Positions 12,301-15,300 of a stretch of 32,000 nt of DNA are shown in pieces (position 1 is the stretch's first letter; the number at the start of each line of letters is the position of its first letter). The position numbers are program-made. Source of the stretch: Paenibacillus macerans (GTDB taxonomy: Bacteria > Bacillota > Bacilli > Paenibacillales > Paenibacillaceae); assembly GCF_900454495.1 (NCBI RefSeq), contig NZ_UGSI01000001.1:1303803-1335802 (forward strand). Reading direction: 5' to 3'.

Positions 12301-15300
12301 GACATGATTTATGGTTATTATAAACCCATCAAGTGAAAAGACAAATCATTTGATAAATTTAAAAAAGAGGAAGGTTTTGAATATGGCAAATTATACCCTT
12401 GAGGAAAAAGACAGCTTCACCGTTTTGGGCATTGGAATCGAGCTTAAGAGCGATTACACGGACTATGCCGGCATAAACAAAGAGAAGGCAGACTTTTGGC
12501 AGGCAGTGAAACAAGATGGAAGACTTGACACTTTAAAGGCCGTAGCCGCAAATGACTACATTTTTGCCGTGAACGAAGCGGTGAATAACAAGATGATGCA
12601 TTATGCTGGTGTAATGAGCGAGGCCTCGCTACCGGAAGCAACCAGGGTTATTCAATTTCCTAAGGGGGAATACCTGGTTGTTAAAGGGGAAGGAAAGTCG
12701 GCTGAAGAGCTAAATAATACGCTTGCCGGCATTGCCTTTGGCCAAGCCTTGCCGGAAGCCAAGGATTTTGCCTATGTTGGCGGGCCAAATACATCGGTCG
12801 TGATGGGGCAGCGAAACGGTTTAGTATTTGGCGAAATGTGGATTCCTGTGGTTAGGAAATAAAGAGATCATAAGGGGGTATGAGCATGTCCTATATCGTT
12901 GATTTTAAAAATGTGTCTACGGTTGGCTTAGAGTCTTCACCCGTAGCAGAAGCGCTTGCCGGTTTACGTGCAAATGAAGCCCGTTACTTCATGAACAAAT
13001 ATAAGCATGAATTTACGGTTGTACCCGCAGCCGAAAGCCAAGAGACCCTTGCTTATGTGAACCGGATTTTGAAAGAAGAACGTGACATTGAGTTTGCGGC
13101 CAAGCCTTTAGAGACATCGCGTTTTCAAGTGGAAAATATCAAATGGGCCTTCGTTTTTTATGAGGATGGTCTTGCGGTCAACGTTTTGTATACAGTTGAT
13201 GACCCTAAGAAGCGGGCCGTTGGTTTCAAGCTTTCCGAGGGGATGGAGGTACCCCGGGAGTTGGAAGGGAAGTTTAAGTTTGCCCGGCAGAAGTCTAAAC
13301 TGGCCGGAACCATTCGGGGCTCGTTTTTTGTAATTAAAGGAGAATATTAAAGTAAACAAAACCGCCAATATTCATAAGAAACTTATGAATGATTGGTGGT
13401 TTTCTGTTCATTAGCAAATGGGCCAAAGTTATTCTGCTGAATTTCCATCCTAAGAAGATATACAGGGTATTGGAACCAAACTTCATTGACAGTAACTGTC
13501 AGTGAAGTTGCTTATAATCAAAATACAGAACATCAGATATTTATCGACAAACAACGGTAAGGAACGTAAATACAACGCGCAAAATATATGAGCTTATGCT
13601 GGAATCGGAAAAGTAAGAACACCCAGAAAGCTCCGGTTGGTGAAAAGGAGCAAAGATGTTTCCCGCGAATATGGTCTCTGAGCCGCGCAGCGAATCCCCA
13701 ATCCGGAAGTAGGTTGCGCCGGGAACCCGCACCCGTTATCGTGCTAGAGTATAACCGCGTCCTGCGGCGTACTTGAAGAGGTGAATGCCGTAAGACATTG
13801 ATGAAACTGGGTGGTACCACGTGAGCTAAGACTCTCGTCCCTTTAGGGATGGGAGTCTTTTTGTTGTTTTCCTATAAAAAGGAGGTGAATTACCATAAGA
13901 AACATTTTTATCGGTGGAGCTTGGCCATATGCCAATGGTTCCCTTCACTTGGGAAGGCTAGCGAGTGTGCTGCCAGGGGATGTGCTGGCGCGCTACCACC
14001 GGGCGAACGGAGATTCTGTGAATATGTAGGCTTGTTCGAGCCGATCAATTTGATCGGCTTTTTAAATTATCATTAAACGAGGCGCAGCGAAGGAAGTTGG
14101 GGTCCTTATGAAAATCTTAATAAATTCTCAAGCTGGAAGTCATAAATTTAGTTGCCGAATTTAGTAAACTAGTAGGATGTTGAGTTCTGTCGGAAAGGGG
14201 CTGAAAATGATGTGCGCTAAAGTTCTCGTTGTTGACGATGAACATGAAATAGCGGATTTAATAGAAGTGTATCTGCGCAATGAAAATTATGAAGTGTTCA
14301 AGTTTTACTCTGCAACGGAAGCTCTTTCCTGCATTGATCGGGCGGAGCTTGACCTGGCCATTCTGGACATTATGCTGCCGGACATCAATGGCTTTACGCT
14401 TTGCCGGAAAATACGGGAACAGCATACCTATCCCATCATCATGCTGACGGCCAAAGATGAAGAGACGGATAAAATTACGGGGCTAACCTTGGGTGCCGAC
14501 GACTACATCACAAAACCGTTCCGTCCGCTTGAGATGGTAGCGCGTGTAAAAGCACAGTTGCGGCGCTATAAAAAATACAACACGCCGCAGTCTGCGCCTG
14601 TCACTGAGCCTGTAATCGTCCATTCAGGTTTGGTTATGGATGTAAACACGCATGAGTGCCTGCTGAATGAACAACCTCTTGAACTGACGCCCACCGAGTT
14701 TTCCATACTCCGCATTTTACTGGAGCGAAAGGGCAGAGTGGTGAGTGCCGAGGAACTTTTTTCTGAGATTTGGAAGGACGAGTATTACAGCAAAAGCAAC
14801 AATACAATCACCGTCCATATCCGTCACTTGCGTGAAAAAATGGGCGACACTGTAGAAAAACCAAAGTATATCAAAACCGTATGGGGGGTCGGCTATAAAA
14901 TTGAAAAGCAATAAAAAGGGCAATTATGCAATGCTGAAGCGAAAAGCTTTTTTACAGATGCTGCTGATTACGGTCATTGCTGCTGTTACCGTCCTTTTGA
15001 TGCGGGATATTTTGCGGGGGCAGATTGGAGATCGCATCGTTCAATTCCTGATTTATATTTTTAATCTGAACAACTCCGATGCACTGCTCATCTATCATTA
15101 TGTATTTCGCAATAACTTAGATCTCATTATGCTTCTTTTGACCCTGGTTTTTCTGGTTATTCTTTCTTGGTTTACGATCTCCTGGTTCACAAAACATTTT
15201 GATGAAATCAGCTCCGGCATGGATCGGCTTGTGGAAGATTCAGAGGATAGAATATCCCTCTCCCCGGAGATGGAATTCATGGAAAATCGTCTGAATACCA

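Follow-up and report, generated by a model that had tools for sequence, protein, structure and literature searches.

Does the T-box leader upstream of the vanRSHAX operon of Paenibacillus macerans still work as a riboswitch, and does the gene fragment behind it mark the place where the operon entered the chromosome? Both questions arise from a stretch of 32,000 nucleotides (assembly GCF_900454495.1, contig NZ_UGSI01000001.1, positions 1,303,803 to 1,335,802, forward strand), here called the window. In it, a methionine T-box leader, the beginning of a second methionyl-tRNA synthetase gene (metG2, encoding the auxiliary enzyme MetRS2) and the van genes follow each other on the plus strand. The first-pass annotation had described the leader as intact and the junction behind the gene fragment as a possible scar of the van acquisition. 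Our comparisons point with high confidence to ordinary gene decay instead, that is, to a spare T-box-metG2 cassette cut by later deletions beside a van operon that was already resident.

The leader was tested with the Rfam T-box family RF00230, which has a gathering score of 93 bits. At gathering thresholds, the Rfam scan of the whole window did not report a T-box, the small RNA ncr1015 being its sole report. In a permissive scan of the 851 nucleotides from 13350 to 14200, a match at 13592-13845 was obtained with 59.2 bits (E = 3e-12), 34 bits short of the gathering score. The covariance score had been proposed as the check on an intact T-box and, being below the threshold, speaks against it. 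For comparison, we used several lineages of the P. macerans/P. oralis complex (L001, L093, L094, L096 and L099), P. macerans MER 50.2 (L013), P. oralis (L014) and two other Paenibacillus contigs with a full-length metG2 outside a van context (L011 and L012). The T-box of L001 scored 60.5 bits, and those of L011, L012 and L094 scored 107, 109 and 108.6 bits, respectively.

Alignment with the intact T-box of L094, which lies at the same locus, located the defect. The homology begins only at 13621, in the AG bay, and then runs over 276 nucleotides with 9 mismatches and no indels, so the remnant (13621-13869, plus strand) comprises the 3' two-thirds of a leader at about 97% identity. The first 40 or so nucleotides are gone. 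They carried the K-turn and the S-turn, the basal helix and the 5' strand of Stem I, including that of the helix between the specifier loop and the AG bay. At 13620/13621, the AG bay is joined straight to a DUF1697 gene, of which the native 3' end is left. This DUF1697 remnant (13533-13616, plus strand), consisting of the last 27 codons and a TAA stop, was recognised by blastn and tblastn against L001 and is 96% identical to residues 155-181 of the L001 protein. The gene is intact in L001-type contigs (181 residues), its TAA stop lies inside the stretch that Rfam had aligned as T-box Stem I, and its C-terminus aligns with PDB entry 2hiy up to residue 176 of 181, showing that the sequence is native to DUF1697. 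From these alignments, the covariance-model match over 13592-13620 is judged fortuitous. An internal deletion of 9-10 nucleotides, suggested for the Stem I defect by the comparison with L011, was ruled out by L094 and by the DUF1697/2hiy alignment in favour of a 5' truncation fused to DUF1697. The blastn comparison with L001 also showed that 652 bp (L001 8987-9638) are missing in the window at 13532/13533. This deletion is specific to the sub-lineage of the window and removes the DUF1697 promoter region together with the first 154 or so codons.

The folding of the leaders was in line with the alignment. Stem I folds canonically in L094 (-27.4 kcal/mol) and in L011 (-21.7 kcal/mol); in the window, the minimum-free-energy fold did not contain a canonical Stem I, and the test for a K-turn and basal helix failed. 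Within the AG bay, which reads AGAAAG (13625-13630), an A is found at 13628 where L094, L011 and L012 have a G, changing AGAGA to AGAAA. The K-turn and the distal platform are required for tRNA-dependent read-through, particularly in T-boxes with a Stem II (PMC7583486).

A promoter was missing as well. No sigma-70-like promoter was detected when 13300-14300 was scanned. The TTGACA (13486) and TATAAT (13513) motifs, read from the sequence at 13486-13518 on the plus strand and originally taken as the promoter, are separated by a 21-nucleotide spacer that is too long for sigma-A, and in L001 this stretch sits about 200 nucleotides upstream of the DUF1697 start. The T-box of L094 has a 12/12 promoter (TTGACA-17-TATAAT) 20 nucleotides upstream. 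Further upstream in the window, a strong hairpin followed by TTTT (13360-13401, plus strand; RNAfold -21.3 kcal/mol), the likely terminator of a 156-residue gene at 12880-13350, blocks read-through from that side.

What remains of the leader, first described as complete in all hallmarks, is well preserved. It still has the distal helix with its loop, the specifier loop on its 3' side, Stems II, IIAB and III, the T-box sequence and the terminator. The T-box sequence AAACTGGGTGGTACCACG, with the UGGU bulge, is located at 13804-13821; as the antiterminator element (AAACUGGGUGGUACCACG, 13804-13821) it competes with an intrinsic terminator at 13828-13859 that has a U-tract and a stability of -22.9 kcal/mol. 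The stem of this terminator has 14 bp and not the 13 bp counted before. The T-box sequence and the terminator could be confirmed and the distal loop is present, whereas the AG bay is mutated and the 5' part and the score contradict intactness. In the specifier loop, the 3' side (GAAUAUGG) occupies 13667-13674 and had been placed one nucleotide too far downstream (13668-13675). It contains AUG at 13671-13673, followed by a G, and the motif GAA-U-AUG-G is unpaired and invariant in 5/5 homologues, while the AGUA of the 5' side and the helix above it are lost in the window, where an AAAGUA at the DUF1697 stop resembles the lost side by chance. Since the conserved purine comes right after the codon, as in the register of the covariance model, the specifier is predicted to read AUG for methionine; the alternative register UAU, considered earlier, was dropped.

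Auxiliary MetRS2 enzymes of Firmicutes, with an E. coli-like PYANGS N-terminus, are linked to resistance against MetRS inhibitors. In the window, only the beginning of such a gene follows the leader. A perfect Shine-Dalgarno sequence, AGGAGG (13880-13885), precedes a frame at 13895-14029 (plus strand) that consists of ATA at the start position (13895-13897), codons 2-42, two junction codons (N and M) and TAG (14027-14029). The 44-codon stub and its ATA start were both borne out, the start now being placed at 13895, and the frame matched MetRS N-termini in a phmmer search of PDB (E = 1e-5). Codons 2-42 are identical at the protein level to residues 2-42 of the 546-residue MetRS2 encoded at the same locus in L013, with 6 synonymous and 0 nonsynonymous differences compared with L013, L094 and L099. 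The homology to metG2 ends at 14020, after codon 42, which supports the earlier proposal that a second metG copy was destroyed by a deletion. The L013 gene (3357-4997) is complete by PF09334 (E = 7e-143, positions 2-391 of 391), with a further match to PF19303; the window copy, with residues 2-42 only (42 of 546 codons), fails the PF09334 test for a complete MetRS.

The stub is not confined to the window. A 44-residue product (P0001) that is 95% identical to it was found on 17 contigs, which stem from independent assemblies of NCBI and Logan. In these contigs the stub starts with ATG and contains LNLGR; the van operon follows here too, and the surrounding genes agree with those of the window. 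For the contigs L092 and L098, identity with the window over 13351-14180 is 100%. The start codon is ATG in L001 and L094, GTG in L013 and ATA in the window, the ATA being a lineage-specific loss of ATG. Apart from the start codon, the stub differs from that of L001 only by H18N (LHLGR in the window, LNLGR in the L001 type). A start loss and a His/Asn change in the HIGH-type motif are what relaxed selection predicts. The HLGR motif itself had been interpreted as a degenerated HLGH. This was not the case, as HLGR is also present in the intact metG2 genes of L013, L011 and L012. HLGR, and KFSTS in place of KMSKS, are native to the Paenibacillus MetRS2 subfamily (L013 3357-4997; L012 8001-9671; P0090, P0091), and related proteins of Clostridia have HIGH, HLGH or HVGH. 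A word-indexed homologue search returned short fragments only, which is a property of the search and of fragmentary assemblies and no evidence of a stub family. Short MetRS N-terminal fragments of this family (30-80 residues) are frequent in assemblies of Clostridia and Bacilli, some of them on megabase contigs; annotated examples come from [Clostridium] sordellii, C. tagluense and Bacillus sp. es.034, and most of the fragments look frameshifted or truncated.

Behind the break at 14020/14021, a filler of 61 nucleotides (14021-14081, plus strand) leads to the conserved left edge of the van block at 14082. The filler contains a second intrinsic terminator (14038-14060, -14.7 kcal/mol), as had been noted before. 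It is not the native 3' end of metG2 or of an MFS gene, as no similarity was found to the metG2 ends of L013, L011 and L012 or to the MFS end. The van block (14082-18770, plus strand) carries the five genes in the order vanR (14177-14914), vanS (14901-16025), vanH (16107-17123), D-Ala-D-Lac ligase (17124-18155) and vanX (18160-18777), with an upstream region of vanR at 14082-14176. When scored with NCBIfam, the ligase reached 615 bits (curated cut-off 550), VanX 382 (320) and the VanR family 388 (350); VanH with 529.5 bits (cut-off 540) and VanS with 398.7 bits (cut-off 400) were marginal. The block is 86-94% identical in at least 8 other Paenibacillus species with unrelated flanks (including L015-L020, L053 and L057). 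Its right edge (18764-18770), within the last vanX codons, is sharp; the left one is ragged (14082-14106). In several of the species, about 120-830 bp of extra DNA occur between vanS and vanH, at window 16144-16149. When species-representative genomes were scanned with the ligase of the window, 95% identity was obtained for the ligase of L013 and 92% for that of L014, and both genomes also share the flanking genes of the window.

The order of events was then deduced from the sister lineages. All sampled lineages of the complex carry the van block. Between stub-type lineages and those in which a MarR-MFS gene pair precedes van, collinearity at about 97% identity extends from 14101 across the right junction as far as 19400. 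The shared block and right junction, at this identity, indicate a single ancestral van acquisition. The upstream side differs in each case. L013 has a 5'-truncated T-box, an intact metG2, then MarR, MFS and vanR. In L094, the order is a 33-nucleotide DUF1697 remnant, the promoter, the T-box, a metG2 with an internal deletion of 262 bp, MarR, MFS and van; L099 likewise has an intact T-box and a metG2 without the 262 bp. L093 and L096 have neither T-box nor metG2 left, and L014 retains the last 100 or so nucleotides of the T-box and three small metG2 fragments, with the last of them joined to the van flank. The window and L001 combine the AG-bay truncation with the truncation at codon 42. Outside the van context, L011 and L012 have full-length metG2 genes (HLGR) behind intact T-boxes. 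The orf112 upstream of the T-box in L013 was also considered as a DUF1697 remnant; it gave no tblastn match, and relatives annotate it as YolB. Altogether, five distinct lesion states of T-box and metG2 were seen across the lineages. As the same van block stands beside differing metG2 states, van was resident before metG2 decayed, separately in each lineage. The metG2 truncation would then be a secondary deletion and not a scar of the van acquisition.

The strongest competitor is the scar itself, an illegitimate recombination in which metG2 from codon 43 on gave way to incoming DNA made up of the filler, the terminator and the van block. We regard it as unlikely. The break lies just 61 nucleotides from the left edge of van, which had prompted the proposal and is correct, none of the other sampled lineages has the filler, and the van block of P. 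oralis also directly abuts a metG2 fragment. However, the complex shares the block and its right junction at the identity of the flanks (95-97%), which fits one ancestral acquisition, and upstream of this same block L013 has a complete metG2 and the MarR-MFS pair, while in L094 and L099 metG2 is complete but for the 262 bp. The ragged left edges (14082-14106) are what several secondary deletions would leave, and not what is expected of a single insertion with a defined end. Every stub copy found, on 17 contigs, adjoins van and none was seen without van nearby, because all belong to one clade that inherited both.

Several observations weigh against decay by later deletions as the full account. 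For the filler (14021-14081), a search of 101 loci and one metagenome scan gave no matches outside the lineages of the window and L001. In addition, the window has kept 22 nucleotides of the van flank, GCGCAGCGAAGGAAGTTGGGGT (14082-14103), which are also found in the distant L015 and L016 and partly in L014 and are absent from the MarR-MFS-type lineages such as L013 and L094; this favours the scar as well. The layout of the window does not appear derivable from an L013-like one by a single simple deletion, and it appears that the exact content between metG2 and van in the ancestor cannot be reconstructed from the present comparisons. At the leader, the 3' end of DUF1697 offers GC, GGA and AAAGUA, which can be aligned to the base helix and the S-turn, and a weak residual Stem I-like fold may exist in the window.

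A further possibility, to which we assign little probability, accepts the deletions and explains them by selection rather than drift. In the sampled lineages the T-box-metG2 unit was ruined in different ways and always directly upstream of van; this could reflect a fitness cost when the HLGR-type MetRS2 is expressed beside van or along with it, or the two terminators could have been kept as an insulator of the VanR-controlled promoter.

For the favoured reading, a decayed cassette beside a resident operon, we propose the following course. The ancestor would have had DUF1697, a sigma-A promoter, the methionine T-box and a metG2 of the PYANGS type with HLGR, in this order, upstream of the resident vanRSHAX. 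One lesion, visible from the comparison with L094, took the promoter and the beginning of the T-box and fused the DUF1697 stop to the AG bay; another, visible from the comparison with L013, took metG2 from codon 43 on and whatever came after it, leaving the filler at the break. Two more are seen in the sub-lineage of the window only, the loss of the 652 bp of DUF1697 and the change of the start from ATG to ATA. Without Stem I, the anticodon of tRNA-Met should not be readable in a structured specifier loop, and the default terminator (-22.9 kcal/mol) would halt any transcript, which would otherwise meet the start-less stub and the second terminator. The vanR gene would be driven from its own conserved region at 14082-14176. 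Most likely the remnant is transcriptionally silent and without effect on vanR, as far as the sequence allows this prediction, and read-through into vanR is very unlikely. The predicted inactivity follows from the missing promoter, the upstream terminator, a Stem I that cannot form, the intact default terminator, the missing start codon and the second terminator.

A leader that still works would send transcripts through the stub toward vanR when tRNA-Met is limiting, or would express the 44-residue peptide in the strains with an ATG. We hold this to be highly improbable. The 97% identity of its 3' two-thirds to an intact T-box, covering AUG with its purine, Stems II and III, the UGGU bulge and the terminator, would suit a working element, as would the perfect Shine-Dalgarno sequence and the ATG kept in L001-type strains. 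Against it stand the lack of a promoter, the lost K-turn, basal helix and 5' strand of Stem I, the mutated AG bay, the score 34 bits below the gathering score and the second terminator ahead of vanR. The changes between the stubs of the window and L001, at the start and in the HIGH-type motif, also are those of relaxed selection. The first-pass annotation had already doubted its own suggestion that an orphan riboswitch fires toward vanR because of the second terminator; the doubt was justified. An assembly or sequencing artefact hiding an intact gene is refuted, although draft Paenibacillus assemblies do show a frameshifted metG2 (L011), as the identical junction occurs in the 17 contigs of independent assemblies and L092 and L098 match the window at 100% across it.

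The neighbourhood of the locus is variable as a whole. Across the complex, gene gain and loss are concentrated in the interval between the conserved Cass2 and 156-residue genes (12311-13350) and the PadR, DUF1048 and ABC genes (18992-21386), in which DUF1697, TetR, DUF1648, YolB, ROK, MFS, MarR-MFS and PTS-EIIA vary and the van block alone is constant. An exact look-up of the 156-residue protein (12880-13350) did not give a match. Between vanX and PadR, the gap is 57 nucleotides in the window (18771-18827) and about 420 bp in L014 (11648-12069), and in L013 an amidohydrolase gene on the minus strand and a MarR gene are inserted (11648-13560). At a distance from the van locus, the ncr1015 match, an sRNA of Bacillus, is full-length (6576-6694, minus strand, 102.9 bits). 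It lies directly upstream of, and on the opposite strand to, a gene for a protein of 873 residues with PPDK_N and PEP-utilizers domains (6766-9387, plus strand), relatives of which also match Rph_4th, which suggests a rifampicin phosphotransferase. L001 has kept the pair as well, with 109.8 bits for ncr1015.

Taken together, a leader can appear to the eye to be a complete riboswitch although it lacks a promoter and its 5' part. The locus is a record of how an auxiliary aminoacyl-tRNA synthetase cassette was worn down step by step, and differently in each lineage, next to a chromosomal vanRSHAX operon, and it does not support a coupling of tRNA-Met charging to vancomycin resistance.

Both T-box leaders and auxiliary MetRS genes are familiar elements, and the window holds an ordinary pseudogenised example of them. 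With methionine T-boxes of RF00230, the leader shares Stems II, IIA/B and III, the T-box sequence with the UGGU bulge and the mutually exclusive terminator, and it retains a distal loop, an altered AG bay and, of the specifier loop, the 3' side GAA-U-AUG-G with its purine; it differs by the absence of the promoter and of the first 40 or so nucleotides, by the mutated AG bay, by 59.2 instead of 93 bits and by the start-less stub downstream. The 42 N-terminal residues of the stub are those of the full-length, T-box-controlled paralogue of P. macerans MER 50.2, whereas the catalytic core, the KMSKS-type loop and the anticodon-binding domain of MetRS2-type synthetases are missing. The vanRSHAX cluster has already been described in five P. 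macerans strains and in P. oralis KCOM 3021 (PMC9689679). No mention of methionine or a tRNA ligase was found in the main text of that paper, so the decaying T-box-metG2 region was apparently not described there. The window agrees with this chromosomal cluster in gene order and species group, and its ligase is 92-95% identical to those of P. oralis and P. macerans MER 50.2. In other strains the MarR-MFS pair separates metG2 from vanR, whereas the lineage of the window is without the pair.

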